From: an uncultured delta proteobacterium
GTDB taxonomy: Bacteria; Desulfobacterota; Binatia; UBA9968
NCBI GenBank assembly: GCA_963847445.1
Contig: CAWJZV010000025.1
Span: 119,980-183,979 of the forward strand
Reading direction: 5' to 3'
Length of the DNA stretch: 64,000 nucleotides
In this document: piece after piece, positions 43,971 through 64,000 of the stretch
How the letters are laid out: the number at the start of each line of letters is the position of its first letter
Numbering within the stretch: the first letter of the stretch is position 1
The notes under the pieces: model-generated
The model's database searches: none
Told to the model about the DNA's origin: nothing
The model's input: the letters and a program-made list of their open reading frames with translations, nothing else
Position numbers and translations under genes: made by a program

Positions 43971-44172
43971 TCGCTGAAGTAGATCGGCCTATTCGGCCAA
44001 ATTAGCGTACGGATTCTTTGCCTGGTATGCTTTGTGCGTTATCACGCGCCAATAGGATGCATGTGCGCGTCCACCGCGTTCTTTCGCAGCGTGTAGGAAA
44101 GCTGGCTGCGCGATGTGCATACGTGAGAAGCAGCGAAATCGGATCATCATAAACTCGAGTTTAATAATCATC

Positions 44173-46846
44173 ATGGATCTCAATCGTTTGACGGAACAAT
44201 CCCAGGAAGCGTTGCGCAAGGCGCAAGAGTTGGCTGTGCGGCGCAATCACCAGGGCATCGATTCGCTACATCTTTTGGCGGCGCTACTGGAAGAAAAGAA
44301 CGGCTTGGCTGCCGGCTGTCTCGCCGCCGCGGGCATTGCGCCGAGCGCTGTGACCGAACGAGTCGAGCAGGAGCTCAATGCGATGCCGCAGGTGTCCGGG
44401 CCGGGCATGGAAGCGCAGCAAGTGTATTTTACCCAGGGATTGGCCCGACTCCTGACCCAAGCCGAAGACGAAGCCAAGTCTCTCAAGGACGAGTATGTCA
44501 GCGTCGAGCATTTGCTGCTCGCCATGATCGCCGACGAGCGCAGTGCGGTGGCGCGGCTACTGCGGCCTCTGGGATTAACCCGCGAGCGGCTGCTCGGCGG
44601 CGATTAAAAAAATTCGCGGCAGCCAGCGGGTTACCTCGCCCAATCCTGAAACGACCTATCAAGCGCTCGAGCGCTACGGCCGCGATCTCACCCAGTTAGC
44701 CGGTCAAGGCAAACTCGATCCGGTGATCGGCCGCGACGATGAGATTCGCCGGATTATCCAGGTGTTATCCCGCCGCACGAAAAATAACCCGGTGCTGATC
44801 GGCGATCCCGGCGTCGGCAAGACCGCGATTGTCGAAGGGCTTGGCGCAGCGGATTGTCCGCGGCGATGTGCCGGAGAGTCTGAAAAATCGCCGCTTGATC
44901 GTGCTCGACATGGGCGCGCTCATCGCCGGCGCCAAGTTCCGCGGCGAGTTTGAGGAACGACTGAAGGCGGTTCTCAAAGAAGTGCAGGAGTCCGCAGGGC
45001 GAGGTGATTCTGTTCATCGACGAGCTGCATACGGTGGTCGGCGCCGGCGCGGCGGAAGGCGCCATGGATGCGTCCAACTTGCTCAAGCCGATGTTGGCGC
45101 GCGGCGAGCTGCATTGCATCGGCGCGACCACGTTGGATGAGTACCGCAAGTATGTCGAGAAGGACCGCGCGCTGGAGCGGCGTTTCCAGCCGGTGCTGGT
45201 CGATCAGCCCAATGTCGAGGATACGATTTCGATATTGCGCGGCCTCAAAGAACGCTACGAAGTGCACCATGGCGTGCGCATCAAAGACGCGGCGCTGGTG
45301 ACCGCCGCGGTGTTGTCCCATCGCTACATCAGCGACCGTTTCCTGCCCGATAAGGCGATCGATCTGGTCGACGAGTCGGCGGCCAAGTTGCGCACCGAGA
45401 TCGACTCCATGCCCACCGAGCTGGATGAGGTCTCGCGCCGGGTCATGCAACTGGAGATCGAAAGGGAAGCCCTGCGCAAAGAAACGGACCAGCCTTCGCG
45501 CGAGCGCTTGACCAAGTTGGAAAACGAGTTGGCGGGATTAAAAGCCGAACAGGGCCAATTGCGCGCTCGCTGGGAAGTGGAAAAGCAGGGCATCGACCGG
45601 CTCAAAACTCTCAAACAAGAGATCGAAAAAAATAAACTCGCCATGGAACAGGCCGAGCGGGACTACGATTTGAACCGCATGGCCGAGCTCAAGTACGGCA
45701 AGCTCGTCCAACTCGAACGGGAGCTGGCGGCCGAGGAAGAGCGCTTGCGCCAGAGCGGCGGCAGGCAATTGCTCAAGCAGGAGGTCGACGAAGACGATAT
45801 CGCATCGGTAGTCGCGCGCTGGACCGGCATCCCGGTGTCGCGCTTGCTCGAGGGCGAAAAGGAAAAGTTGCTCCGGCTGCCCGAGCATCCTGCACAAGCG
45901 CGTCGTCGGCCAGGAGGAAGCGGTCGAGGCGGTGGCCGACGCGGTGGTGCGCGCCCGCTCCGGGCTCAAAGATCCCAACCGGCCCATCGGCTCGTTTATC
46001 TTCTTGGGTCCCACCGGCGTCGGCAAGACCGAGCTCGGGCGCGCCCTGGCGGAATTTCTCTTCGACGATGAAAACAATATGGTGCGCCTCGACATGTCGG
46101 AATATCAGGAGAAGCATACCGTGGCGCGGCTGATCGGCGCGCCGCCGGGATATGTCGGCTACGAGGAAGGCGGCCAGCTCACCGAAGCGGTGCGGCGCCG
46201 TCCCTACGCCGTCGTGTTATTCGATGAAATCGAAAAGGCGCACCAGGATGTGTTCAACGTCTTGCTGCAAATTCTCGATGACGGACGGCTCACCGACGGC
46301 CATGGGCGCACCATCGATTTCAAGAACACGGTGGTGATCATGACTTCCAACGTCGGCAGCCATTTGATCGCCAACTACCGCGGGCGAGACGATGCGGCGG
46401 CGTTCGCGCCCATGCGCGCGCAGGTGCTCGATGCGCTCAGGCGCGAGTTTCGGCCGGAGTTCTTGAACCGCGTCGACGAGATCGTCGTGTTCCACAATCT
46501 GTCGCGTGAACACCTCAAAGCGATCACGGATATTCAATTGCGGCGGCTGCAACAGCGGCTCGATGAGCGTCATATCACTTTGCAGATGACCGATGCTGCG
46601 CGCGAATATCTGGCGACCACGGGTTACGACCCCAATTACGGCGCCCGTCCGCTCAAACGGTTGATCCAAAAAGAAATCGAGACGGCGCTTGGCCGGCTCA
46701 TTCTCAAAGGGGAAGTCAAAGACGGCGATACCGTGACGGTCGACACCGAGGCCAAAGCTGCCGGTCTCAAGTTCAGCGTGCAACTGGTTAGCGAGCCGCA
46801 AAAGCGTGGCGCGGCGGAAAGCGACGCCAAGAGCGCGTTGGCCTAG
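44173..46846 (+). CDS. clpB: ATP-dependent chaperone ClpB, frameshifted
   Basis: Clp N-domain, [18 protein letters not shown], middle coiled coil (AELKYG), [25 protein letters not shown]. Confidence 0.95.
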
Positions 46847-49386: not shown

Positions 49387-49427
49387 TGTAAACACAGCTC
49401 AAGATTAATTGTCTGTCTACAAAGGCA

Positions 49428-51974
49428 ATGTTACTTGGAAGGCCGATGGAGAAGTCAGCCGTCGCAGAGGAGGGCGTCTCGATGAAGACCAACGAAGAGG
49501 GGGGCATACGGCAACCGCGAACAAGGGCCAGCAAACGGATAACACCTATAGGAGTACTGGTCCGGTGCTTTGCTCGCTGCATTCTCCTCCTAGGTTTGGT
49601 TTGGCTCGCGCAAGCTAACGTCGAGGCCGCGGCCGCTGCAGACGCGCCAGCCACATTAGCCACGCAGGATTTGCGAGTATGGGTAGGGGAACGCCCTATT
49701 CCGGGCAGTCAATTGCAAGAGGTTTGGGTTGCCAAGCAGCTTTCGGTGTACGAGGAAGTGTATCCTTTTTCTGGCCAATCGGTCATTGGACTTGGAATTA
49801 CCGGTTTTGTGCAGTTCAACAGCGAGCGGAGCATGGTACGGGTTGTGATGGTGGATGATCAGCTCCATGAATATCTTGTCTACGAGATGTACCCGCTCCT
49901 CGCCTCCGCCTACGTCCTCCCGATCCGCGATGCCTGCCAGGAAACCTGCCTGCTGCCGCCTACCGCCCCGGCCAGCTTAAAGGTCGAGCTGGTGGATGCC
50001 TCGCTTGAGATCCAGACGATAGTCATCAATCAGTTGATGGCTCCGCAGCGTACTCGCGGAGCGCTTTCAGCGGACACGGTACAGCAGCTGGAGAATATGA
50101 AGAAGGCTCAGGCCACCGAGATCATCTCCGTCTTGAATCGACAGATCCAAGCGAAGGGGTTGAGCTGGCGTGCGGGCGAAACGGCGATCTCGCGCCTGTC
50201 GTACGCCGAGAAGAAAAAGCTCCTTTCTTGCGTCGAATCCGGTCGTGATATCGCACCCAACCTGCAAGGCGCTGAGTACTACACGGGTGGGATCTTCGAA
50301 GTGAATCCCGGAACCATGACTCTCTTTTTGCCCGAAAGCGCATCTTCTTCGATGATCGACTCTTTCGACTGGAGCGATCGCCATGGAGCCAATATGCCCG
50401 GCTCTCCGTACTATGATGGGGATCCTACCGGCAGTGGATGGATGACGTCCGTCAAAAGTCAGCGCTGCGCGGATTGTTGGGCACATTCCACTCTTGGTGC
50501 CATGGAAGCGCAAGCCAATCTATATTTCAATCAGCACGTGGACTTGGACTTATCTGAGCAGGAGTTGGTGTCGTGCAGCGGAGCGGGCAGCTGCCAATAT
50601 GGAGGAAACACGGGATCGGCGCTGTCTTATGTCGAGAGAGTAGGAGTGGTGGATGAGGCATGTTTTCCAGAATCCGGCACGGATGAACCATGCACTAACT
50701 GTTGTCCAGCGCCCCGGGAACGAATCCGCATCGCCGGATTCGAGGGATTTAATCCCAGCTGGGAAGGAGAAGACAACATCAAGAGACGACTGATAAAATC
50801 GGGTCCATTACCATTTGGAATTAGCAGTTGGTGGCATGCCATGGTGCTGGTGGGGTATGTGCGGGATCCCGCGACGGGAGAGACGGTGTGGATCCTGAAG
50901 AACAGTTGGGGACCCTCCTGGGGTGAGCAGGGGTATGGGTATGTGAAAGTACAATTGTCTGACATTTATCTCACCTATAACTTATTTAGTCCTGTCATCA
51001 GCCAGTTCACGCCGTATACGGTCGCCTGTTATGACGCTGATGGAGACGGATACTTTAACTGGGGTATCTCTGACAAAGCTCCCGACTCCTGTGGGAAAGT
51101 CCCATCGATAAAGGATTGTGACGATTCAGATCCTAACGTGGCGCTCTTGTTAGAAAATGGCGCTTGTACGGCTCCACCTCGCCCGGATACGACACCGCCG
51201 GGGATCAGCATCGCCGCCACGCCGTCGACTCTGTGGTCGCCGAACGGCAAAACAGTCCCGGTCGTCGTCGCCGGAACGATCACGGATGCCGACTCTGGCG
51301 TGGATGCGAGCACGGCGACATATACGGTGAGCGATGAGTACGGAGTTGTCCAGCCTAACGGACGCGTACCCCTAGAGTCGAGCGGCAGTTACACAATCAC
51401 CGTACTGCTGGAAGCCTCGCGCCGCGGAAACGACATTAACGGTCGGCAGTACATCATAACGGTGCGGGCACAAGATCGGTCAGGGAACTCCGCTGCAGCT
51501 TCCACCGTGGTGACTGTTCTCCACGATATGGGGGATCGCGTGGTGAACGATCTCTTGGCGCTGGCGCATATGAGCACCATGCTTGATGCAATCCCCGTGG
51601 AGGGAGGCCCCGCCGGTACGTTTCGCATTACGGCCGTGTTCACCAACATTAGTACCCAGACAATCAGGCATACGTTTGCGGAAGTCGTGGCCCTTAGCGA
51701 AGGAAATTTGCTGCTCAACGCTGATGATGGCCCTGGCGGGGTCGGTGCTCGGGTGACTCTCCCCAGTACTGAGAACACACTGTTGCCCGGAGCGACACAG
51801 ACATTTGAGTTTGTGATTGGTCTTCAGAACAGGGAGCCGTTCACTTTCCTTGTGAACATCCGAGGCGCCTTGGAAACGCCGAGCTCTCCTGTAGCTGACA
51901 AGCAGAACAAACGGCGCGTCGAGCGAGCGGTTTTGCCCTCCGGGAAGATTAAAAGCGGGTCGAATCTACGTTGA
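49428..51974 (+). CDS. Secreted C1A papain-family cysteine peptidase with C-terminal beta-sandwich domains
   Basis: FDWSD, SQRCADCWAHS (catalytic Cys), DLSEQELVSC, HAMVLVGY, WILKNSWG; DADGDGY/DCDD Ca-type motif; exact start uncertain. Confidence 0.9.
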   Translation: MLLGRPMEKSAVAEEGVSMKTNEEGGIRQPRTRASKRITPIGVLVRCFARCILLLGLVWLAQANVEAAAAADAPATLATQDLRVWVGERPIPGSQLQEVWVAKQLSVYEEVYPFSGQSVIGLGITGFVQFNSERSMVRVVMVDDQLHEYLVYEMYPLLASAYVLPIRDACQETCLLPPTAPASLKVELVDASLEIQTIVINQLMAPQRTRGALSADTVQQLENMKKAQATEIISVLNRQIQAKGLSWRAGETAISRLSYAEKKKLLSCVESGRDIAPNLQGAEYYTGGIFEVNPGTMTLFLPESASSSMIDSFDWSDRHGANMPGSPYYDGDPTGSGWMTSVKSQRCADCWAHSTLGAMEAQANLYFNQHVDLDLSEQELVSCSGAGSCQYGGNTGSALSYVERVGVVDEACFPESGTDEPCTNCCPAPRERIRIAGFEGFNPSWEGEDNIKRRLIKSGPLPFGISSWWHAMVLVGYVRDPATGETVWILKNSWGPSWGEQGYGYVKVQLSDIYLTYNLFSPVISQFTPYTVACYDADGDGYFNWGISDKAPDSCGKVPSIKDCDDSDPNVALLLENGACTAPPRPDTTPPGISIAATPSTLWSPNGKTVPVVVAGTITDADSGVDASTATYTVSDEYGVVQPNGRVPLESSGSYTITVLLEASRRGNDINGRQYIITVRAQDRSGNSAAASTVVTVLHDMGDRVVNDLLALAHMSTMLDAIPVEGGPAGTFRITAVFTNISTQTIRHTFAEVVALSEGNLLLNADDGPGGVGARVTLPSTENTLLPGATQTFEFVIGLQNREPFTFLVNIRGALETPSSPVADKQNKRRVERAVLPSGKIKSGSNLR

Positions 51975-52246
51975 GCTCTTAGTGTCGCAGGGCGCAAATT
52001 TGCGGTGGGGGACATAGCAGCATGGGACCGAAAAGGGGTCGAGGAAAGCGCCGGTAAAAGCCGGATGAGAGTAGCGGATGAAAAGTTCTGCACGGGTCTT
52101 GGGGCTGAATTTGATATCATAACTTTCTATCGAATTGTTGAGTCGTTGAGTCTGACCCTTGTGATCGTTTCGCGGCCTTCGGAAAGGGTTTCGCACTTGT
52201 GGCAAAGCGTTTGACCTAATTTGTCCTGTTGACGTTATCGCATTCG

Positions 52247-52428
52247 ACTATCGCGCCAAACAATCCATCGTAAACGTTGACGATATCCCGCCTGAGTTAA
52301 GCGGAATGTTTTCTTCGCGCGTGCCAAAGCGCGTAGCGAAAAGTTTTCTAACTATCCCGCCGCGGCTTGGCACGTTCCTTGATAGACGCGTTAACTCAAA
52401 AGTCTTGCAGTGATCAAGCAACCGCATC
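52247..52428. repeat. ~180-bp duplicated upstream block, copy 2
   Basis: Similar to 49014-49198; contains TGGCACGTTCCTTGA. Confidence 0.85.
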
Positions 52429-52510
52429 TCCGCTTTCTAGACCTCAATAACCCAGCTGAGGCTTTCCAAGCGTCAGGGCTTTGTTAAATCGATCAGAAGG
52501 AGAACAAGAC

Positions 52511-54507
52511 ATGTTTAAGCCATCTGTAATAAAGCACTGGACGATTCCTTCGATTTTCGTTTTCGCGGCACTCACGCTCGTTGTTACGCTGACGGGAGCC
52601 CACCTCGCGCAGGCGGGTGGGTTCAACGTCGATTCCCTGGTGACTTTCACACCTCTGTCCTCGACCTACCGCACCACCACCAACACCACCGGGTGTCCGG
52701 CCGGTTTCGTCGGGAAATTCACCTTCACTGCGCAGTTGACGAATAAACCGGACAGTCCCGCGATGCCGGGTCTGGACGTGCTCGTGCAGACATTGACCAA
52801 CGGCAACGTGCTGCTGGATCCGCAGACCAACGCCCGTCTTGGGCGGCGCGGGCGCTGTCATGGAAGTACCCGAGGTGGGGCAGTATGCCGACGGCCTGCT
52901 GAGTGCGGACGAGACGGTGGACGTGCCGTTTGTTGTTTGCTTGAAGACACGCCAGTCGTTTCAGTTTTTCGTCGATGTGTTCGGTGTCGTGACCGAGCTG
53001 GTGAGTGTCAATCTGTCGGGAACGAACAGTGGCAATGGCGCTCGACGTCTCGCAGTCAGCGCGGATGGCCGCTTCGTGGCGTTCCACAGCGATGCGAGCG
53101 ACTTGGTGACGAACGACAGTGATCGGCCACCAACTGATCCGTTAGCGTTTCGGCAGCGGACGTATTCGTGCGGGATCTCCAGACCGGAACCACCACGTTG
53201 GTGAGCGTCAATCGGTTTGGAACGAACAGTGGCAATGGCGCCTCTGGAATGCGACCGGCTCAGCGCGGATGGCCGTTTCGTGGCGTTCACAAGCGAAGCG
53301 AGCGACTTGGTGACGAACGACACCAGTGTACGCAACGGACGTGTTCGTGCGCGATCTGCAGACCGGAACAACCACGTTGGTGAGCGTCAACCGGTTTGGA
53401 ACTAACGGTGGCAATACAGCGGGTCGCAGGACCCTCGTGCTCAGCGCCGACGGCCGTTTCGTGGTGTTCCAGAGCCTTGCGAGCGACCTGGTGGCAACCG
53501 ACACCAATGGGACCGGGGACGTGTTCGTGCGCGATCTGCAGACGGGGACTCACCACGCTGGTCAGCGTTAATCGGTCCGGAACCGACAGTGGGAATGGAA
53601 ACTTGGCGGTCGGCAAGCAGGCGCTTCGTGGGTTTCACAAGTAGCGCGAACGACTTGGTGCACGCTGGCACCAACGACGTGTTCGTGCGCGATCTGCAGA
53701 CGGGAACCACCACGCTGGTGAGTATCAACCGGTTTGGAACGAACAGTGGCAATGAGTTTTCGCTGGTCTGAGCTTAGCGCGGACGGTCGTTTCGTGGCGT
53801 TCGGAGCTACGCGACCGACCTGGTGGCGAACGACACCAATGCATGCGATGTGTTCGTGCGCGATCTCCAGACGGGAACGACCACTCTGGTGAGCGTCAAC
53901 CGGCGGGAACGAACAGTGGCAATGGCAATCTCGCAGCTCGCCGGGATCAGTGCGGACGGGCGTTTTGTGGCGTTCGAGAGCGACGCGAGCGACCTGGTGG
54001 CGAACGACACCAATGGGGCATGGGATGTGTTTCGTGCGCGATCTGCAAACCGGGACTACCACGCTTAGTGAGCGTCAACCGGGCGGGAACGAACGGCGGT
54101 AATGGCTTCTTCACGGCGACCCTGCGATCAGCGCGGACGGCCGTTTCGTGGCGTTCTCGGAGCGGGGCGAGCGATCTGGTGGATGAGAACGATTCCAATG
54201 GGTCGTTCGGCACTGACGTGTTCGTGCGCGATCTGCAGACCGGGACCACTACGCTGGTGAGCGTCAACCGGGCGGGGACAAGATCGCGGCAATAACGGTT
54301 CGGACTTGCTTGCCAGTGACCTGTACGACCGTCGGATCAGCGCGGACGGTCGCTTCGTGGCGTTCGACGAGCGATGCGAGCGACCTCGTGGCAAACGACA
54401 CCAATGGGAAATCGGACGCTTTTGTGCGTCCGGTGCCGCGATGTGCGAGGGTGAGGCACAAGGAGGGGCTCGAACAATTGAGCACGTCTAAAGGAGAAGC
54501 GTTATGA
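52511..54507 (+). CDS. Secreted TolB/PD40-like beta-propeller protein A, frameshifted
   Basis: Signal peptide (AQA), N-terminal ~120-aa domain, ~8 repeats of SADGRFVAF.S.ASDLV..DTNG..DVFVRDLQTGTTTLVSVN. Confidence 0.8.
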
Positions 54508-56509
54508 AAAACAATGCATACGTGCTGAAGCTGGGCCTGCTTGCGCTGGCTCTGTTTCTGATGGTAACTGGGGTACCCACTGCGCAGGCGGGTGGGTTCA
54601 ATGTCGATTCCCTGGTGACTTTTACACCTCTGTCCTCGACCTACCGCACCACCACCAACACCACCGGGTGTCCGGCCGGTTATGCCGGGAAGTTCACCTT
54701 CACGGCGCAGTTGACGAATAAATCGGACAGTCCAGCGATGCCGGGTCTGGACGTGCTCGTGCAGACGTTGACCAACGGCAACGTCTTGTTGGATCCGCAG
54801 ACCAATACGGTCTTAGGCGGAGAGGGCGCCGTCATGGAAGTACCGCAGGTGGGGCAGTATGCCGACGGCCTGCTGAGTCCGGACGAGTCGGTGCAAGTGC
54901 CGTTTGTTGTTTGCTTGAAGACGCTGCCAGCCGTTTCAGTTTTTCGTCGATGTGTTCGGCATCGTGACCGAGTTGGTGAGTATCAACCGGTCTGGAACGA
55001 GCAGCGGCAACGTGCTACTCGGTGGCATCAGCGCATTACTAGCCCAGACTCAGTGCGGATGGCCGCTTCGTGGCGTTTGAGAGCTGCGGCGAGCGACCTG
55101 GTGGCGAACGACACCAATGGGACAGTCGGACGTGTTCGTGCGCGATATGCAGACGGGAACCACCACGCTGGTGAGCGTCAACCGGCTGGGACGGACAGTG
55201 GCAATGGGAACGTCTTTACTCGTCCCATGATCAGCGCGGACGGCCGCTTCGTGGCGTTCACGAGCGGGCGAGCGACCTGGTGGCGAACGACACCAATGGG
55301 ACGACGACGTATTCGTGCGCGATCTGCAGACGGGAACCACCACGCTAGTCAGTGTCAACCGGTTCGGAACCAACAGTGGCAATGGCTTGGCGGTACGAGC
55401 CCCGCGCTCAGCGCAGACGGCCACTTCGTGGCGTTCAGGAGCTTGGCAAGCGACTTGGTACGCAACCGACACTAATGGAACATGATGACGTTTTCGTGCG
55501 CGACCTGCAGACGGGAACGACAAGACTAGTGAGTGTCAACCGGGCGGGAACGGACAGCGGCAATGGCTTTTCAGGCGGCCAAAGCCCTGTGATCAGCGCG
55601 GACGGCCGCTTCGTGGCGTTCTGGAGCTTGGCAAGCGATTTGGTGGCGACCGACACGAACGGGGTCGCGGACGTGTTTCGTGCGCGATCTTACAGACGGG
55701 AACGACCACGCTGGTGAGCGTCAACCGGGCGGGAACTAACAGTGGCAATGCTGGGAGCGATTCTGATAACAATCCACAGGGGTCGGACTCCCCCACGCTC
55801 AGTGCGGACGGCCGTTTCGTGGCGTTCTCGAGCTGGTGCAAGCGATCTGGTGGCGAACGACACCAATGCGTGGTTTGACGTGTTCGTGCGCGATCTACAG
55901 ACCGGAACGACCACGCTCGTGACTGTCAACCAGGCGGGAACAGACAGCGGCGATCGCCCTAGACCGGACAGTTCAGAGCTGGCGGCTCCTCGTCGCGCTC
56001 AGCGCGGACGGCCGCTTCGTGGCGTTCGAGAGCGGCTGCGAGCGACTTGGTGGCGACCGACACGAACGGGACATCGGACGTGTTCGTCCGCGATCTGAAA
56101 GACAGGAACGACCACGCTGGTGAGCGTCAACGAGGCGGGAACGGACAGCGGCAGGCCCCGTACAGAGTGTCATCCCGAACCCCAGGGTTGCATCTTCCGT
56201 CCTTTCGGCTCGGGGGGCGCCGTGATCAGCGCGGACGGCCGCTTCGTGGCTTTCTCAGCAGTGCGAGCGACCTGGTCGCGACTGACACCAATGGGGACTT
56301 TGACGTGTTCGTGCGCGATCTGAAGACCGGAACCACCACGCTGATTAATGTCAATCAGGCGGGGACCGACAGCAGCAATGTGGGCTCTCTTGGCCCTGTG
56401 CATCAGCGCCGACGGCCGCTTCGTAGCGTTTACAAGCAATGCGACGCGACCTGTGGCGACCGACACCAATGGGAGAGGGGACGTGTTCGTGCGTCCGGTG
56501 CAGCAATGA
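54504..56509 (+). CDS. Secreted TolB/PD40-like beta-propeller protein B (paralog), frameshifted
   Basis: Different signal peptide, N-domain nearly identical to protein A, ~8 repeats. Confidence 0.8.
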
Positions 56510-56676
56510 GCGAGCGAGGGATAAGGAGAGGCTGGATCATTTGAGACCCGTTCCGACAAACTAATTCCAAGAGCCGATCGGCCCTCGGGCGACACAGTCG
56601 GTCCAGGTGAGCATTTATGTTTCAGTATAAGGCCAGAGCGATATGGAAGTCGGTTAGGAACAGGAACGGGAGAACC

Positions 56677-58396
56677 ATGCGCGACTTCAACGGCAAGTCT
56701 AGCCAGGATCATATGTTTTGTCCTTGCTAGCATAATTATAGAGCCTGTCCATGCTGCTTCGATCGACAGCGAGCCGGCAAATCTGCTCACAAATGGTAGC
56801 TTCGAACAAGGGCAGTTCGCGCCGAACCGCATTCCGAGCGGCTGGTCCTGGGATTCCTGGGCGCGAACGGCCATACCCGTCTGGGACGAGACCGAGGCTC
56901 GTACGGGCGACAGGAGCGTAAAAATCGTCTCGCCCACTTTAGACGACGCTCGCTGGGTTCAAAGCGTGCCTGTCGAGCTCAACAAACCTTATTACCTGTC
57001 TGGATGGGTCAAGACCAAGGATGTTGCCCATTCTCCCGAAATCGTCGATGCGGGCGCTAACATTTCGCTATTAGATGGTTCGACGCGCTCGCCGGGTATT
57101 CTTGGCAGCCAAGATTGGCTGCGCACCGGAGTTTTATTCAACTCCGAATCCAATGGCCAGGTCACGGTCGCCGCGCGGCTAGGATTTTATGGCGGGACGA
57201 CAACCGGCACCGCTTGGTTCGACGACATAAAGCTGACGCCGGTTGTTCCACTTAACCCTCATCCTTCCTGGAAAATCCTGGTGCTCATATACCGTGACAC
57301 CGACTTTAGCTATACGGACAGCGCTGGAACACAGCACCACGTCGTCGCCTCGATGACGCAGTATGAGGTGGATCAAGCGGCGCACGCAGCCAGGCAGTTC
57401 GTAGAAAAGGATATCCCGGCGCTCACGAGCAGCAACATGCTGCCAACGCTGACCATCCGCTATCCCGATCGAGCGCTCAGCAAACTGTCGCCGCATGGCG
57501 GCGGATGGTGGCCTTCGCCAGAGAATACCGCCGGGGAGCGTGATCCTGCATTCGACTCGGTCATCGTTATTTGGGATCCCCGCGCGACAGATCAGATCAC
57601 CGGAAAGTCTATTTGGCTTGGCAGTGCAGCCGGACTCACGCCTGCGATGGGTACCGGACAAGCCTATACGACAATAATCATCGAGGCGGCTTTCTCATAC
57701 GGTCACCGCAACGTGTTCAAGCATGAGTGGGGGCATTCCATACTTGAGTTTTTCAACGCGATTGGGACGGCTCCCAGGCCGAAGGTCGAAAATCATGCGG
57801 TCGCAAACCAGTACGTGAACTGCCTGACGGGCGCTCCTTACGTTTGGGTGGATGAAACCGACAGCAAGCCGATTCCGAACTCGATCTACCACAACGATTC
57901 GGGTTTCACCCACGACTATTACTCTGGGATGACGGCCAGGGCCGCTGAACCGGCACGCTGTTTGGGCATCACTGCGGAGGCATGGGCTTACGGCGGTCCG
58001 GTAACTCATTCTGCGAACCCGTCAATGTCTACGGCCAGTCAAATCATCAATGACAAAGTAAACTTTGTCGTCCAGAGCACGTCTTTCAGCCCGAACCGGG
58101 TAGCTGGGGGTTCTGCCGGCGTGTTCACGATCAACGCGGTTCTGACCAAGACAAGCCCGGCAGAGATCTGGGCGCCGATTAAGGCGGTCGTGAAAACGCT
58201 GACTAATGGGAATACGCTTCTTAGCGCCACCGAAGGCAATGGCAGTGCGGGAAGCAAGCAAGCCATCGATGCAGGATCTGATGACGCCTTAACAGGGAAC
58301 GAGTCCGTTACCGTCCAATTCAAGATTGGACTGGCGACCCTCGATAGGTTCAGTTTTCTTGTGGATATTGAAGGCTATGTTCTGTCTCAGCCGTAG
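56677..58396 (+). CDS. Secreted CBM4/9-like + zinc metalloprotease (HEXXH) protein; start region frameshifted
   Basis: Frame extends upstream of 56966 with signal-like LARIICFVLASIIIEPVHA and NLLTNGSFE..GTAWFDDIKL CBM motif; VFKHEWGH. Confidence 0.75.
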
Positions 58397-58607
58397 GGAC
58401 ATTATTGCGCTGTCGGATACTGGTGACGTTTCTAATTGCTTTGACGGCAATCCAGCTACGCCAAAAGCGACTGGGAAAGGGGATTCTCTGTTTCAAGAAT
58501 ATCTAAAAAGTCAGCCGATATTCCCACATGTTTAAAGCAGCTGGCCCCAGTCAGTTTCTTTCTCGATGTTTTGGGTTCGCCAGGAGAAGATAACACCAAA
58601 AGGTAAG

Positions 58608-59129
58608 ATGACGATGAAATTTTTTTGGAACAATGTGGCCGCGGCCGTGGTTATTGCTTATCTCTTGACGGTCGGTCAAGCCGCTGAACAGCCCAGGCCG
58701 GCCAAGAGTCAGGCCGCAGGAACATTTCAGGTGAAAGTCAGCCAGGGCTATCTTTCTTTAGAGGCCGCCGAGGCACCGCTTGGGCAAATCTTTCAAGAGA
58801 TCGGAAAACAAGCGAAGATCACTGTCGATAGTAACATCGGACCGGAAGAAAAAGTTACCATTCGTTTGGATCGTGTGCCGCTTGAAGAGGGGATTAAGCG
58901 GCTTGCAAAAAACGTCACCGTCTTCTATACCGAGACTCCCAAGGACAAAAGTCGTCGAATATCGAAGGTGGTCGTATTGTCTGAAGGGAGAACACAGCCG
59001 GAGTCAGTTAAAGAGTCCGCGCCACAGGCTGTGAAAATAAATAAGCCGGCAGCGCAGCCTGAGCCGTTCAAGTTCGAGTTCGATCCTGGAAAGATTGCCG
59101 AAAAGGAAAAGCCTCGCAAGCAGCCGTGA
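58608..59129 (+). CDS. Secreted protein with stand-alone secretin-N0/STN-like domain
   Basis: Signal peptide; LSLEAAEAPLGQIFQEIGKQAKITV..KVTIRLDRVPLEEGIKRL. Confidence 0.65.
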   Translation: MTMKFFWNNVAAAVVIAYLLTVGQAAEQPRPAKSQAAGTFQVKVSQGYLSLEAAEAPLGQIFQEIGKQAKITVDSNIGPEEKVTIRLDRVPLEEGIKRLAKNVTVFYTETPKDKSRRISKVVVLSEGRTQPESVKESAPQAVKINKPAAQPEPFKFEFDPGKIAEKEKPRKQP

Positions 59130-59136
59130 CGGCCCC

Positions 59137-59301
59137 ATGAATAGAATAATCAGTCTGGTGCGCGAACCAAGCCTTTTCCCAGCGAAAGCCCTGCTGGCTT
59201 GGGATCTCGCGCTGTGGCTTTGCTGGTTGCCTATGCTGCTCAACCGCATAGTATCGCGCTTGCGATATGCGTCGATGCGACTCGAGGCCGAAGCATCATG
59301 A
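59137..59301 (+). pseudogene. Truncated remnant resembling the N-terminus of a second B2 peptidase
   Basis: LAWDLALWLCWLPMLL parallels LATRVTGLLCLLPVLE in the adjacent B2. Confidence 0.4.
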
Positions 59302-59813
59302 TTTTCCGATCTCCACGAAACAATCAGGCAAATAATTTCTGGTGGAATGTTTCTCTCGCAACCCGAGTCACGGGGTTGTTGTGCCTGCTTCCCGTCCTAG
59401 AAAAATCCCACACTCTTCCCGCGCTCCTCGCGCTCCTCACGCCGGTTCGCTGCGGCGAAAAAATACCCGCTGCCTTGGTCATGGAAAGAGCAGTTGGGTT
59501 GGTGCTGCGACTATGCCATCGCCGGCCGTTTCGTTCGGCGCTTTTTCCCAAGGCGTGTCTCAGGCAGTCGTTGGCGCTCTACCACGCATTGACTCATCTG
59601 GGGTTCCCGGTCGAGTTCCATTTGGCTGTGCGCAAGCAAGGCGAGGAACTTGTCGCCCACAGCTGGGTGACGCTCTGGGGAAAACCTGTCGCTGAAAAAA
59701 CCATTCCAAACGTCATGAAACTTGTTTATTCATACCCCACTAAGGCGAATTCAAATCAGGTCATGAACGGAGGTCGATATGGAACAGAAAAACTCTCAGC
59801 GACCGCAGCGTGA
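59298..59813 (+). CDS. Lasso-peptide-type B2 leader peptidase (transglutaminase-like)
   Basis: KACLRQSLAL (catalytic Cys) and AHSWV (catalytic His), typical of Transglut_core3/B2. Confidence 0.88.
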   Translation: MIFRSPRNNQANNFWWNVSLATRVTGLLCLLPVLEKSHTLPALLALLTPVRCGEKIPAALVMERAVGLVLRLCHRRPFRSALFPKACLRQSLALYHALTHLGFPVEFHLAVRKQGEELVAHSWVTLWGKPVAEKTIPNVMKLVYSYPTKANSNQVMNGGRYGTEKLSATAA

Positions 59814-59970
59814 AAAGACGCAAATCTCTGAGCAGCCCGCGGGCAAACAGCAATGGCAAGAGCCGAAACTGAATTTTGTCAAGCCCAAACTGACTAAGCA
59901 TGGCGAGTTGAAAGAGGTCACTGCCGGTTTCTTCGGCGGGTTCAGTCCGGGAGATCAAGACCCGGTCTAG
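59779..59970 (+). CDS. RiPP precursor peptide with lasso-type leader (63 aa)
   Basis: GGAGG RBS; WQEPKL..KPKLTKHGELKEVTA leader (xxPxL..G.....T) then core GFFGGFSPGDQDPV. Confidence 0.85.
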   Translation: MEQKNSQRPQREKTQISEQPAGKQQWQEPKLNFVKPKLTKHGELKEVTAGFFGGFSPGDQDPV

Positions 59971-60000
59971 CCGGCGCTAAGTAGGCGGAGGCCGAGGCAA

Positions 60001-60990
60001 ATGGACCTGTACATGTGTCATGGTCTCACGCTAGGTGTAAAACTTCTCGGACCGGATGGAGTGGCGCACCTTGAACAGCTGCTCGACGATCTGTCATGGG
60101 TGCGCTGCGACCATGCCGTTTCCCAGCCCTTGCTTAACCTCAGTGTCGGTCTCGATAGTTGCAAGGTGGAAATCCCACCGACGGCGCGTGAATTATTCCG
60201 TGCTGATGATTTTTGCGGCATGGAAGTTGACGATGATTTCTACCTGACCGATGGTTCGTCTACCTTTCATTGCCGAGCCCGAACCGGCGCGGGAGATATT
60301 TTTCTGTCGCCGTCTTTTTCTCACAAGTCGCCTCTCTTGCAGCGAAATTTCTGGGCCTTTGCGTTGCTTAAACTGCTACGCAACCGGAGCATCTTCAGTC
60401 TGCATGCGGCGGCCGTGACGCGAAATGGACTGGGAGTCCTCATCGTCGGCCCACCAGGGAGCGGAAAATCCACCCTGGCTATCGGTTTGATCCGACGGGG
60501 CTGGAACTACCTTTCTGACGATGCCCTGCTCCTGCGCGAGAATTCAAACGGAATAGAAGCGTTGGCGTGCCGCAAGAATTTCTATGTTAACGCCGACGTC
60601 GCTGCGAATTACGCTGAGTTCCCTTTGGCAGACGAAGTCGCGGACTCCTATGGCGGGACGAAGCGGAGGTTAAAGATTGAAGAGGCCTACCCGGCGCAGT
60701 TCTTGGAGAAATGTCATCCGACGGTTCTGCTCTTTCCCCGGATTGTCGCCGATCGGCAAAGCGTTTTGCTTCCCTGCGATCGCATCACGGCTTTAAAAAA
60801 TCTTTTGGCGCAAAGCGGTTCCCAGTTGTTTGACCAAAACAGCATGGGTAAGCAGCTCGACCTTCTAGCGCGGCTGCTGCGGCAGACGACATGCTATGAA
60901 CTCAAAGCCGGCGTCGATCTGTACCACGATCCGGCAGTGTGCATGCAGCTGCTGCAAAAGAGCCAACCGGAGCAACCATGGCTCGACTAA
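60001..60990 (+). CDS. HPr-kinase-like RiPP kinase
   Basis: LHAAAV, GPPGSGKST Walker A, YLSDD. Confidence 0.85.
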   Translation: MDLYMCHGLTLGVKLLGPDGVAHLEQLLDDLSWVRCDHAVSQPLLNLSVGLDSCKVEIPPTARELFRADDFCGMEVDDDFYLTDGSSTFHCRARTGAGDIFLSPSFSHKSPLLQRNFWAFALLKLLRNRSIFSLHAAAVTRNGLGVLIVGPPGSGKSTLAIGLIRRGWNYLSDDALLLRENSNGIEALACRKNFYVNADVAANYAEFPLADEVADSYGGTKRRLKIEEAYPAQFLEKCHPTVLLFPRIVADRQSVLLPCDRITALKNLLAQSGSQLFDQNSMGKQLDLLARLLRQTTCYELKAGVDLYHDPAVCMQLLQKSQPEQPWLD

Positions 60991-62000
60991 TCATCGAGCT
61001 TACCGATCGCTGTAACTTACGCTGCCGCCATTGTTTCGACGCGCGGCATGCGGGCACCGGTGATCTTTCGCTGGATATTCTTAGCAAGGTGCTCCAAGAA
61101 GGAAAAAGCTGTGGCTTCGACGAAATCTCTTTTACCGGCGGCGAGCCGACCCTGCATCGGCAATTTGCCGAGATTGTTCGCCTCGTCTGTGCGGCGGGTT
61201 ACCGCTTCGGCTTTGTCAGTAACGGCAGCAACTTCTCGCACCATTACGCTCTGTTGATCGAGCACCGCGAGTGGTTAGAAGGGGTCACTTTCAGCCTCGA
61301 CGGCGCGCGCGAGACGACCCATGACCGGCTGCGCGGCAAGGGCTCCTATCGGCAGGTGGTGCGGGCGGCGAGCATCTGCGTGTTCAAGGGAATTCCTTTT
61401 ACCCTCAATATGGTTCTCACGGCAGAGAACCGCAGCGAAGTGCGGGAGATGGTCGAGTTAGGGGCCAGTCTTGGCAGTAGAGCGGTGCGCTTCGGCCATT
61501 TGATGTCGACGCCCGAGACCGCCCTGCGCGGCTTGGATCTGTCTCCCAAAGAGCGGTTGGAGGTGGAGGACGAAATCTGGCGTCTGAAAGGAGCCGCCCC
61601 CATCCTTGTCGCCATGGCCCCCGGCTATTTTAGCGAATCGCCGTTTTTCCCCTGCGCCCCGCTCAAACTGCAAGAGCTTAACCTCGATTGCCGGGGCAAT
61701 GTTACGCTCTGTTGCCAGCTATCCGGTTATTCCGGAGCCGACAACAAAACCGATTTCATGGGCAACCTCAGTGAAGTCAGCTTGGCCGAGGCGGTTGAGC
61801 GTTCACGCAGGATGGTCGCTGTATATCTGGAGGACAAGCAAGCAAAGTTAGCCGGCGGCAAGTTTGCTCAACTGGATCATTTTCCTTGCTGGTATTGCTT
61901 GAAGCATCTCGGCAAAACTTCCTGGTTAAAAAACTTTCCTCATCACCCATGGGCGGATCACGAAGGCCCCACAGCGCCGAGGAGCCATGACAACGCTTGA
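60978..62000 (+). CDS. Radical SAM enzyme with SPASM/twitch-like C-terminus
   Basis: CNLRCRHC, FTGGEP, FSLDG..HDRLRG; C-terminal C..GNVTLCC..MGNL..CWYC. Confidence 0.92.
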   Translation: MARLIIELTDRCNLRCRHCFDARHAGTGDLSLDILSKVLQEGKSCGFDEISFTGGEPTLHRQFAEIVRLVCAAGYRFGFVSNGSNFSHHYALLIEHREWLEGVTFSLDGARETTHDRLRGKGSYRQVVRAASICVFKGIPFTLNMVLTAENRSEVREMVELGASLGSRAVRFGHLMSTPETALRGLDLSPKERLEVEDEIWRLKGAAPILVAMAPGYFSESPFFPCAPLKLQELNLDCRGNVTLCCQLSGYSGADNKTDFMGNLSEVSLAEAVERSRRMVAVYLEDKQAKLAGGKFAQLDHFPCWYCLKHLGKTSWLKNFPHHPWADHEGPTAPRSHDNA

Positions 62001-62268
62001 CGACAAGGTTCGACCCAACGCGCAGGTCGTTGACACCAAGCTTGACGACGGCGAAGTCGTTCTGCTCCATCTGGACAGCAAAAGCTATTTTAGCCTTAAT
62101 GTTACCGGCGAGCGGATCTGGCAGGGCTTGAAACAGGGGCTGAGCCTACGCGAGATCAGCCAACGCTTGCAGGCGGAGTTTGACGTGGACGAGGCGGCGG
62201 CGGACTCCAGCGTTGTCGAATTGGTTGACGAGCTGACGCAGCAAAAACTCGCGCAGCTCGCGGACTGA
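61987..62268 (+). CDS. PqqD-family RiPP recognition element (lasso B1)
   Basis: DDGEVVLLHLDSKSYFSLNVTGERIWQGL..ISQRLQAEFDV. Confidence 0.92.
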   Translation: MTTLDDKVRPNAQVVDTKLDDGEVVLLHLDSKSYFSLNVTGERIWQGLKQGLSLREISQRLQAEFDVDEAAADSSVVELVDELTQQKLAQLAD

Positions 62269-62786
62269 TGAACATCCGCCCGGCCACGACCGCGGACATG
62301 GCTCGCCTCATCGAGCTTTTTCAGAAAGCGATCGCCTATCAAAGGGGTTTCGCGCCGTTTTTCGATCTCTCAGCGGATTTTAGCTGGGAGCGATTTGCCA
62401 AGTTGAAGCTTAGTAATCGCCACGAAAGGGTCTTCGTTGCGGAAGCGGATGGCGCGGTATTAGGGTACATCGATGTTCGAGCGATTGTTCCCGGTCAGGC
62501 TCGCTCGCTGAAAAATTTTGTCGGGCGAATATTCCAGCGGCGGATAGCGCCATCATTTGCTCGGACCGGCACTGTGGGTTGGATCGAGGATTGCTATGTG
62601 GAAAGCCAGTTTCGCCGACAGGGGATCGGCGCTGCGTTAGTTGCTTATGGCCTTGCATGGTTGCGCGAAAGCGGGGCAGACCGCATTGAGCTGGCAACTT
62701 TTGTCGCCAACGGCAGCGGCAGAGCTTTTTGGGAGAAGCTAGGTTTTTCTGCTTATCGGCTTTTGATGTCGAAGCGGTTTGATTGA
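62268..62786 (+). CDS. GNAT N-acetyltransferase
   Basis: IRPAT, FVAE..VLGY, YVESQFRRQGIGAAL, N..GRAFWEKLGF. Confidence 0.9.
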   Translation: MNIRPATTADMARLIELFQKAIAYQRGFAPFFDLSADFSWERFAKLKLSNRHERVFVAEADGAVLGYIDVRAIVPGQARSLKNFVGRIFQRRIAPSFARTGTVGWIEDCYVESQFRRQGIGAALVAYGLAWLRESGADRIELATFVANGSGRAFWEKLGFSAYRLLMSKRFD

Positions 62787-62825
62787 GCGTCACGCTCATC
62801 CCAACACACCGAGTGGAGAACAAGC

Positions 62826-64000
62826 TTGGTTAATACGACGCCGCAAGTTTCATCGGGGAAAAGTCGTCCTGAAATTGACCTGCTGCTTTCCTGCGCTAGC
62901 TGTCATCTGGACAGCGCCAGAACAGAGCGCATCAAAGCTTTGACCCGGGGAGAAATCGATTGGCCTTGCGTATTGCGGGCGGCGCTCGCTCACAGAGTCA
63001 TGCCTCTGCTATACAAGAGTCTCAATACCGCCCGCCCCGACAACGTTCCGCAAGCCGTATCGAAGCAGCTCCAGTCCCATTACTACGCCAACGCGGCACA
63101 TAATCTTCTGCTGGCCGGGGAATTACTAAAAATCCTGCGTTTGTTCGAGGGGCACAATGTACCCGCCATCCCGTATAAAGGACCAGTTTTGGCCGCTTCG
63201 ATCTATGGGAACGTTGCGTGCCGGGAATTTGCCGATTTGGATATTTTGGTGCGAGAGCGCGACTATGACAGAGCGCAACATCTGCTGATCTCCCAAGACT
63301 TTCGCCTGGTAAAGGAATTTGACTGGGAGTCTACCTTTGTTGATACCCGCGGCAGAGTCGCTGTGGATTTACACAGGGGAATGGCAGCGCGGGAGTTTCC
63401 TTGCCCACTCGCTTTCGAGTATCTCGCGGGACGTCTTCAGCCAGTAGATCTCGTGGGCACAACCGCAGCCACTTTATGCCCAGAAGATACACTGCTCATG
63501 CTCGCCATCCAGATCAGCAAAGACTCCGGCAGCCGTTATTTACAGCTGGCGAAGGTTTGCGACATTGCCGAACTGGTTCGGGTATATCCGCACCTCGACT
63601 GGGCGCAGGTCCTGCGCCAAGCACGGCGACTGGGCGGCGAGCGGATGCTCCTCTATAGCCTGCGCCTGGCGAACAATTTGCTCGGCACGGTACTTTCGCA
63701 GGAAGTTGTCTGCGCGATCGGATTGCATCCGGCTATCGATGGGCTTGTGGAGTACGCTCGGCGGCAGCTTTTTGATCAAGGTGACCGCACCGTTGTCGAT
63801 CAGCCGACGGTTGACCAGTTCCGCTGGCTCGTACGAGAACGGCTGCGTGACAAATTATACCCTTATTATCTGCGGTATGTGATGGACGTAATAGTCCCTT
63901 GCGAACTGGATCGACGACTATTGCGTCTGCCCGGGCGATTGTCGTTTCTTTACTTTCTCATGCGGCCGGTTCGGCTGGTCGGAAAGTACGGATTGCTTTT
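62826..64000 (+). CDS. Nucleotidyltransferase (NTP_transf_5-like), 3'-partial; not in ORF track
   Basis: TTG start after GGAG RBS, open to window end; IPYKGPVLAASIYG..REFADLDILV, VDLH. Confidence 0.85.
   Translation, partial: MVNTTPQVSSGKSRPEIDLLLSCASCHLDSARTERIKALTRGEIDWPCVLRAALAHRVMPLLYKSLNTARPDNVPQAVSKQLQSHYYANAAHNLLLAGELLKILRLFEGHNVPAIPYKGPVLAASIYGNVACREFADLDILVRERDYDRAQHLLISQDFRLVKEFDWESTFVDTRGRVAVDLHRGMAAREFPCPLAFEYLAGRLQPVDLVGTTAATLCPEDTLLMLAIQISKDSGSRYLQLAKVCDIAELVRVYPHLDWAQVLRQARRLGGERMLLYSLRLANNLLGTVLSQEVVCAIGLHPAIDGLVEYARRQLFDQGDRTVVDQPTVDQFRWLVRERLRDKLYPYYLRYVMDVIVPCELDRRLLRLPGRLSFLYFLMRPVRLVGKYGLL

Follow-up and report, generated by a model that had tools for sequence, protein, structure and literature searches.

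Split-B lasso peptide gene clusters, as represented by the paeninodin (PadeK) and pseudomycoidin (PsmK/PsmN) systems, combine a [Y/W/F]xxPxL leader with a threonine at position -2, a discrete RRE (recognition element for RiPPs, peptides made by the ribosome and modified post-translationally), a B2 leader peptidase, an HprK-like kinase and a PF14907-type transferase with an Asn-synthetase-like cyclase. PsmK phosphorylates a serine and PsmN adds hexoses onto the phosphate (PMC9266682), and the acetyltransferase AlbT of albusnodin is named in a review as a lasso tailoring enzyme. The linear polyphosphorylated peptides (LPPs; LppA/K/B/S/D/N; Popov et al., Nat Commun 2026, PMC13381572) are described as the first characterized cyclase-free offshoot of the lasso machinery, with a patchy distribution and a set consisting of a precursor with a lasso-like RRE motif, a discrete RRE, a kinase resembling HprK and a nucleoside triphosphate transferase. 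Features of their own are a signal peptidase I of archaeal type (LppS), an MsbA-like exporter, phosphorylation at Ser3, long variable cores (precursors of 35–200 aa) and a restriction to Bacillota. Here we analyze a run of seven genes at the end of a 64,000-nt stretch of DNA (the window, whose positions are used throughout) from an uncultured delta proteobacterium (assembly GCA_963847445.1, contig CAWJZV010000025.1, hereafter C25), for which the LPPs are the closest characterized non-lasso relatives.

We interpret this run as a small-peptide RiPP operon, complete or nearly so, which is of split-B lasso descent, is devoid of the macrolactam cyclase and holds a radical S-adenosylmethionine (SAM) enzyme instead, and we assign a probability of roughly 70% to this interpretation. 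By computation we show the genes themselves with their intact catalytic motifs, the conservation of the gene order, the motifs in leader and core and the lack of the cyclase. Compared to paeninodin and pseudomycoidin clusters, the family lacks the Asn-synthetase-like cyclase and includes the radical SAM enzyme in its core set, its cores mostly have no acidic acceptor and go down to seven residues, and their Ser/Thr residues are internal or penultimate rather than C-terminal. Compared to the LPPs, it possesses B2, the radical SAM enzyme and a 7–19-residue core built on FFGxF, has no conserved exporter and occurs in other phyla. The family would represent a natural example of a RiPP pathway exchanging its class-defining enzyme, with lasso leader, RRE and peptidase now feeding a radical SAM enzyme, and its peptides probably make up a new class, the conserved pharmacophore of which, FFGxF-S/T-P, is unusually small.

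A first-pass annotation, made from the letters of the window, had described a tightly coupled, frameshift-free run from B2 to a nucleotidyltransferase. This description holds, as all seven genes lie on the + strand between 59199 and the window end, contain no internal stops in the open reading frame (ORF) calls and overlap or nearly touch each other (Table 1). The overlaps amount to 35 nt for B2/precursor, 13 nt for kinase/radical SAM, 14 nt for radical SAM/PqqD and 1 nt for PqqD/GNAT, and gaps of 30 nt and 39 nt separate the precursor from the kinase gene and the GNAT from the transferase gene, respectively. Position 59137, at which the annotation let the cluster begin, does not start any gene; the longest B2 ORF runs from TTG 59199, and ATG 59298 was judged the likely start from the N-termini of homologues. 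GGAGG sits 6 nt 5′ of the precursor ATG, and a scan of 58300–64000 for promoters and terminators gave no signal (promoter-like 1 vs 2.3 expected, terminator-like 7 vs 6.8 expected). The window corresponds to C25:119980–183979 and C25 measures 183979 bases, hence the window end coincides with the contig end. Since the transferase (homologues of 407–443 aa) is the last operon gene in complete relatives, where it is followed by divergent, unconserved genes, very little should be missing past the contig end. The operon in the window is thus complete or nearly so, and is truncated by the assembly rather than by the choice of window.

Searching with the radical SAM protein yielded 80 metagenome loci, mostly short, and 27 genome loci; L035 and L036 among the latter were weak partial matches and were left aside, so that 25 genome loci count as true relatives and the related loci total 105. 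The analysis covered 122 loci overall. The loci are mutually related, so that counts are not independent, and several from long-read metagenome-assembled genomes (MAGs) are frameshifted. The order B2-precursor-kinase-radical SAM-PqqD-(GNAT)-transferase, or permutations thereof, is found in the 25 genome loci, labeled Acidobacteriota, Acidimicrobiia, Nitrospirota, delta- and beta-proteobacteria, Thermodesulfobacteriota, Entotheonella, Thiohalocapsa and one Bifidobacteriaceae MAG, and in the 80 metagenome loci, and this recurrence across several phyla goes beyond chance. Among the 24 well-flanked loci (at least 3.5 kb on either side of the radical SAM gene), the kinase is present in 23, PqqD and precursor in 22 each, the transferase in 19 and B2 in 16; in L018 (Entotheonella), a masked stretch just 5′ of the radical SAM gene hides the precursor and kinase region. 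A search of 60 genomes from within the genus, family or order of the host genome did not find the radical SAM gene in any of them at E <= 1e-20, which makes the distribution patchy. With 951 protein clusters matching the enzyme at E <= 1e-30 in a collection of 5.8 billion proteins, the family cannot be called rare; the best 120 of these share at least 63% identity and bear generic names throughout, the closest one (97%) being labeled a Candidatus Binatia MAG. Two observations concern individual loci. One Nitrospiraceae MAG carries near-identical whole clusters on two contigs (L014 and L017), each with a gene for the upstream beta-sandwich domain, and the Bifidobacteriaceae-labeled MAG (L019), a label that is odd given the habitat of the radical SAM cluster family, encodes at 4617–6113 of its locus a single 498-aa ORF matching B2 and kinase, a possible natural fusion.

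B2 matches PF13471 (E 1e-12) and NF033537 (lasso_biosyn_B2; 36.1 bits, cut-off 33), and its cysteine (FPxxCLRQS) and histidine (GHSWV) are conserved in an alignment of 11 sequences. The sole other PF13471 match in its own genome is weak and located on contig C42. The kinase matches PF07475 with 35.3 bits (cut-off 33.3) and, under the cut-off of 200, TIGR04352 (HprK_rel_A) with 72.5 bits; an alignment of 12 sequences shows conservation of its P-loop, GxxGSGKST, and of LSDD, and the best PDB match is HPr kinase 1ko7 (E 2e-5). Judged by these alignments and the one of the radical SAM protein described below, the catalytic motifs of B2, kinase and radical SAM enzyme are intact. The PqqD protein matches PF05402 (E 3.4e-16), its best NCBIfam matches being the lasso PqqD models NF033530 (51.7 bits, cut-off 70) and NF033536 (48.8 bits, cut-off 80), both sub-threshold, and the transferase matches PF14907 (E 2.8e-64). 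The GNAT protein (PF00583, E 1.1e-18), which the first-pass annotation had counted among the gene set, is indeed encoded in the window, but it is an accessory rather than a general component, as it is found in 13 of the 105 related loci. In GNAT loci all six distinct cores begin with F or G; where PqqD and the transferase are seen and a GNAT is not, the loci provide 23 distinct cores, of which 12 begin with Gln, again with the reservation that related loci give non-independent counts. As Gln can cap itself as pyroglutamate and the cores of GNAT loci are F/G-initial, this pattern fits N-terminal capping by the GNAT enzyme, a role that we tentatively propose. Its match to HaaN, an acetyltransferase of cyclophane RiPPs, is weak (27.1 bits vs a cut-off of 250).

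The precursor matches the lasso leader model NF033521 (lasso_leader_L3) with 20.9 bits (cut-off 19). A precursor hidden Markov model (HMM) yielded 48 homologues that bear the leader motif and comprise 39 distinct sequences, and 32 were taken into an alignment. P-21, P-14, L-12, G-8 and T-2 as well as one Gly and one Phe of the core are invariant in it, and W-24, L-19 and F-17 almost so, position -17 being F or Y. The resulting signature, [F/Y]-17 x x P-14 x L-12 ... T-2, is that of lasso RRE and peptidase recognition: discrete lasso RREs go with the leader motif [Y/W]xxPx[L/V/I/F/A] (PMC13381572), and the penultimate Thr of lasso leaders is conserved (PMC10368454). The invariant P-14, L-12, G-8 and T-2 fit this motif as well as the penultimate Thr. 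The window leader ends in V-T-A, which leaves a predicted 14-residue core, GFFGGFSPGDQDPV; the lasso-type leader and the B2 cleavage after VTA that had been proposed beforehand agree with the invariant Thr at -2. As a separate observation, the leader harbors tandem RRE-type motifs (59845–59880, positions -27 to -16), namely W-x-x-P-K-L at -24/-19 and [F/Y]-x-x-P-x-L at -17/-12; RRE specificity in Bacillota is reported to be set by W versus Y (PMC13381572).

A core motif, F-[FLIA]-G-x-F-[STVI]-[P...], begins 0–7 residues after the T-x cut in 36 of the 39 distinct precursors. In each of these 36, position 4 or position 6 of the motif is Ser or Thr, and V or I occurs at position 6 only alongside T at position 4 (4/36). 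Core lengths range from 7 to 19 residues, two read-through artefacts aside, and several cores are simply FFGxF[ST]P. Cysteine is absent from all 36 motif-bearing cores except for one frameshift read-through. Divergent or second precursors with the same leader were also seen (L023 8717–8998, L033 8804–8998, L124 14300–14563, L042 1693–1962), in which T-F is followed by S-[IA]-P-F-S-P-I-P-N, V-V-P-F-S-P-L-Y-L-Q or F-A-P-S-I-V-V; a motif of the P-F-S-P type may hence also be a substrate of the enzymes.

Two lines of evidence bear on the missing cyclase. Using the three AsnB-like proteins of the own genome as phmmer queries, no AsnB-like gene was found in any of the 105 related loci. Because this query set is narrow, PF00733 was also searched in ten whole cluster-bearing genomes, and in none of them does a match lie near the cluster, though all ten hold PF00733 matches elsewhere; those on the same contig stand 387 kb to 2.8 Mb away (contig numbering was confirmed by coordinates for five genomes and inferred from the accession suffix for four). 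The own genome has four PF00733 match rows, on contigs C34 and C4 and none on C25. The earlier statement that no cyclase is in view thus extends to the homologous clusters, whose survey for a co-occurring cyclase had been suggested as a check, and to the operon end, which is formed by the transferase. The geometry of the cores points in the same direction. Known lasso rings comprise 7–9 residues. Asp and Glu are absent from 24 of the 39 distinct cores and occupy positions 7–9 in only three, some cores are as short as seven residues, and the acidic residues of the window core are D10 and D12 only, in line with the prior remark that this core is unlike a lasso. Going by these core sequences, a lasso fold is excluded for the precursor family.

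The radical SAM enzyme matches PF04055 (E 1.4e-23) and carries CxxxCxxC at residues 12/16/19; as its N-terminus begins right at this motif, it is devoid of a fused RRE. In 15 of 15 sequences, C134, C226, C245, C246, C304 and C307 are invariant, and DHFPCWYC forms a family signature. The five C-terminal cysteines (C226 to C307) follow CX13GX4CC ... CX2C, an abbreviated SPASM/twitch pattern. A full SPASM domain has a seven-Cys motif and binds two auxiliary clusters. Pfam lists no SPASM family for the protein at E <= 0.01, so that of the original label 'rSAM/SPASM' the radical SAM part stands and the SPASM part is only partly right. All 25 NCBIfam families shown score under their cut-offs; ScmF leads with 82.8 bits (vs 400), and StsB (80.4 vs 625), MftC (76.6) and PqqE (65.4) likewise stay far below theirs. 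Sequence matches in the PDB comprise SkfB, BlsE, PqqE, viperins and YydG. The structural model (mean predicted local distance difference test, pLDDT, of 87) finds BlsE, SkfB, SuiB and CteB as best folds, with anSME and PqqE matching too (template-modeling score, TM, of 0.55–0.67), and thus spans twitch (BlsE, SkfB) and SPASM (SuiB, CteB, anSME) enzymes. The enzyme belongs to the SPASM/twitch group. With SkfB, SuiB, CteB, PqqE plus PqqD and YydG it shares the radical SAM core and a Cys-rich C-terminal extension, and it would rely on a PqqD-like partner as PqqE does; its five invariant C-terminal cysteines, its scores below all 25 listed cut-offs and the lack of a fused RRE set it apart from these maturases. 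Thioether chemistry as in sactipeptides and ranthipeptides was dropped, the cores having no Cys as thioether donor, and methylation of the B12 type was dropped because the cobalamin-binding family is not among the Pfam matches. In triceptides, an aromatic-x-x motif is crosslinked by a 3-CyFE radical SAM enzyme. The F-[ST]-P stretch behind the invariant Phe is compatible with such a motif, and a triceptide maturase model is not among the 25 best NCBIfam matches.

Combinations of an HprK-like kinase, a PqqD-like protein and a radical SAM/SPASM enzyme are also represented in NCBIfam by the SynChlorMet cassette (ScmC/D/E/F) and the HprK-related kinase A/B systems. The window proteins differ from them in that all scores stay under the cut-offs (ScmC 25.6/125, ScmD 20.8/100, ScmE/F 76.8 and 82.8/400, HprK_rel_A 72.5/200), and membership was rejected since these scores are far under the equivalog cut-offs. 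A full-text literature search returned no paper for 'SynChlorMet'. RRE-Finder encountered about 300 discrete lasso-type RREs co-occurring with radical SAM enzymes and treated them as false positives (PMC7470986). Full-text literature yielded no published description of the present gene set, although the radical SAM compendium PMC10288494 and the RRE-Finder supplement may list the family undescribed; by term search, no relevant passage was found in the text of PMC10288494 or PMC13352647, and neither 'radical' nor 'rSAM' in that of PMC13381572. All parts of the first-pass reading that computation could check held up, and the suggestion of an undescribed RiPP class is consistent with the literature, with the qualification that the lack of a cyclase has its precedent in the LPPs (PMC13381572). 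B2 and precursor exceed their NCBIfam cut-offs, so annotation pipelines would call them 'lasso', which is misleading for this family.

Taken together, a pathway of six steps can be proposed. The discrete PqqD-type RRE would bind the leader at its [F/Y]xxPxL motif and, as known from the RRE family, hand the precursor to the enzymes. The radical SAM enzyme would then modify F-[FLIA]-G-x-F of the core, where we favor one intramolecular crosslink (-2 Da) with epimerization as the main alternative. By analogy to PadeK, PsmK and LppK, the kinase would phosphorylate the Ser/Thr flanking the invariant Phe, and by analogy to PsmN the PF14907 transferase would extend this phosphate with a further group. 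Going by the invariant Thr at -2, B2 should cleave past T-x, in the window after V-T-A, which would free the 14-residue peptide. Where encoded, the GNAT enzyme might finally cap the new N-terminus.

The alternative that fares best among the competing explanations, though we consider it unlikely, is a linear (poly)phosphorylated, decorated peptide of the LPP type on which the radical SAM enzyme forms no ring and instead epimerizes the FFGxF stretch in a YydG-like manner or introduces another mass-neutral or small change. Kinase, RRE and transferase constitute the LPP core set, the hydrophobic core can be likened to epimerase substrates, and YydG, a radical SAM epimerase acting on Val/Ile according to a review, is among the PDB matches of the enzyme (E 4e-4 from the sequence alone, 5.9e-10 from a profile search). 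SkfB, SuiB and CteB, all of them crosslinkers, match at least as well, and the invariant Gly, which has no stereocenter, together with the invariant Phe suggests a defined two-point reaction over scattered epimerization. An LppS-type peptidase or MsbA-like exporter was not found among the genes of the run or by neighbor clustering, which did not include a search aimed at the S26 and ABC families.

Far less probable is that the peptide serves as precursor of a small cofactor or metabolite, as in the PQQ and mycofactocin pathways with their radical SAM enzyme, PqqD-like chaperone and peptidase, and that no peptide product exists. Cofactor pathways often involve kinase and nucleotidyltransferase steps, and the sub-threshold PqqE and MftC scores, the structural match to PqqE and the very short conserved core stretch are in line with this idea; the leader and peptidase are of the lasso type, the neighbors are secreted proteins with no redox or other cofactor-tailoring gene conserved beside the cluster, and the patchy distribution (0/60 relatives) is consistent with horizontal transfer. 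An ordinary paeninodin/pseudomycoidin-type lasso cluster with its cyclase past the contig end or elsewhere and the radical SAM enzyme as mere tailoring factor, which could appeal to the lasso models being the best NCBIfam matches of B2, leader and PqqD (B2 and leader above cut-off), to the contig stopping inside the last gene and to the PF00733 genes on C34 and C4, retains next to no probability and is largely refuted by the transferase closing the operon in complete homologous loci, by the cyclase screens and by the cores.

Several points weigh against the reading as a cyclase-free, radical SAM-containing RiPP operon or against its firmness. The crosslink, phosphate, nucleotide/sugar and acetyl chemistry is a proposal, and the top matches of the radical SAM enzyme, a decarboxylase, thioether synthases and a Lys-Trp crosslinker, have similar scores, so that no chemistry is singled out. 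LppK, which phosphorylates Ser3 in a linear, cyclase-free RiPP, is inactive on the S3T variant (PMC13381572), yet in 8 of the 36 entries with the motif, Thr but no Ser occurs in the core, implying that the present kinase clade takes Thr or that its target is elsewhere. LppN is inactive in the heterologous host and the true reaction of PsmN is described as unsettled (PMC13381572, PMC9266682). B2 is detected (E 1e-5) in only 16 of the 24 well-flanked loci and lies several kb upstream in some loci, and no exporter gene is conserved in the cluster. For the 105 loci, the search for a cyclase relied on a narrow query set from the own genome, the stricter PF00733 screen covering ten genomes only. The genome is a MAG with an estimated contamination of 6.9%, and the radical SAM gene is absent from all 60 relatives. 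Since the publication of the LPPs in 2026 (PMC13381572), cyclase absence alone has a precedent. At the RNA level, three metatranscriptome libraries contribute one contig each (320, 383 and 465 nt; 95–99% identity) over the precursor gene and the 5′ end of the kinase gene; these are a weak hint of transcription in close relatives, as such libraries can contain DNA. Outside 59415–59608 and 59769–60261, the RNA-library cover of the operon is nil or consists of scraps, which is not evidence of silence.

Table 1. Genes of the peptide operon and of its upstream neighborhood in the window
Feature	Position	Strand	Family match or remark
B2 cysteine leader peptidase, lasso-type	59298..59813 (longest ORF 59199-59813)	+	PF13471, NF033537
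Precursor peptide, 63 aa	59779..59970	+	NF033521; leader 59779-59925, core 59926-59967
HprK-like peptide kinase	60001..60990	+	PF07475
Radical SAM enzyme, abbreviated SPASM/twitch C-terminal domain	60978 (ATG)..62000	+	PF04055
PqqD-type RRE, discrete, B1-like	61987..62268	+	PF05402
GNAT acetyltransferase, accessory	62268..62786	+	PF00583
PF14907 nucleotidyltransferase, cut by contig end	62826..64000 and beyond	+	PF14907; 391 codons visible
up187, membrane-anchored, family-less	58566..59129	+	no Pfam/NCBIfam match; homologues in 22 loci
HEWGH-motif protein, C-terminal beta-sandwich domain ~58013-58387	56966..58396	+	no Pfam match; domain HMM E 1e-43
Signal peptide, beta-sandwich domain ~54585-54935, propeller-like repeats	54504..55475	+	domain HMM E 4e-29
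Beta-sandwich domain copy, two frames	52460..53201	+	HMM positions 8-72 in one frame, 73-121 in another
Papain-family (C1) peptidase, C-terminal beta-sandwich domain ~51522-51881	49428..51974	+	PF00112 E 3.8e-25; domain HMM E 6e-35

The genes upstream of the operon, a linked set that the first-pass annotation missed, have in common a Pfam-less domain of about 115 residues, the model of which (pLDDT 93) is a beta-sandwich without fold match in the PDB at E <= 0.001; the best match is a CBM2 cellulose-binding domain (E 0.02, TM 0.47), and the class of fold gives no specific hint. Within the own 7.19-Mb genome the domain HMM finds five places, four of them at window positions 49392–58393, within 10 kb upstream of the operon, and one at C14:97743–98735. 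Across five other genomes, all but one of 19 domain match rows are located no more than about 15 kb from the radical SAM gene, and the domain is present in 19 of the 24 well-flanked loci. When loci were retrieved by the domain only, with an alignment narrower than the full domain, 17 were obtained, of which nine are known cluster contigs and six of the eight new ones hold precursor, kinase or other cluster genes; the remaining two (L123, L125) have the domain without cluster genes, one of them coming from a genome with a cluster on another contig. The domain is usually C-terminal on secreted-type proteins, which in other loci include subtilases and PKD, DUF7948 and SBBP/DUF5122/NHL/FG-GAP propeller proteins. 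Hence, a beta-sandwich domain on diverse secreted proteins is almost confined to the surroundings of this cluster and is genomically linked to it. In both L126 and L131, homologues of up187 come directly after beta-sandwich-domain genes on three occasions; the own genome has one strong copy of up187, which adjoins B2 upstream in the window.

Co-folding of domain and precursor gave a score of 0.40 (best control 0.02), with a contact agreement between runs of at least 80% and a partner pLDDT of at least 48. In the calibration, 58 of 80 solved complexes attained the mark, as did 2 of 110 mismatched pairs; those that did so with a score of 0.60 or below were only 7 of the 80 and both mismatches. 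We regard the co-fold as weak support for a candidate binding. It is conceivable, if rather doubtful, that the operon is half of a larger system in which the matured FFGxF phosphopeptide acts as candidate ligand or surface anchor for the beta-sandwich domain. If so, extracellular papain-like, subtilisin-like and HExxH peptidases and many beta-propellers would be docked or regulated in a peptide-and-receptor manner arising from RiPP chemistry. The domain-bearing genes are often paired with a small membrane-anchored protein. The biological roles of the LPPs are stated to be still unknown by their authors (PMC13381572), and the same question stands for paeninodins; the link to a private domain on secreted peptidases and propellers offers a concrete handle on the purpose of peptides of this kind.

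DNA of the stretch occurs in sequencing runs labeled biofilter, soil and sediment (20 rows, covering it in whole or part, from 12 coded studies), one biofilter run covering 29 of its 30 bins. Two further observations concern the integrity of neighboring genes. The propeller-like repeats behind the gene at 54504..55475 run on in other frames to about 56544, and the region 53568–56544 as a whole contains overlapping ORFs in several frames and on both strands that carry one propeller-like repeat, FVAF.S.ASDLV..DTNG..DVFVRDL.TGTTTLVSVN; it resembles a single long repeat gene interrupted by frameshifts, which may be genuine or stem from assembly. At 44113–46846, a ClpB-type chaperone is distributed over at least three ORFs (Clp_N; AAA_lid_9; AAA_2 plus ClpB_D2-small), which suggests frameshift errors or decay in the assembly, the peptide operon itself being unbroken.

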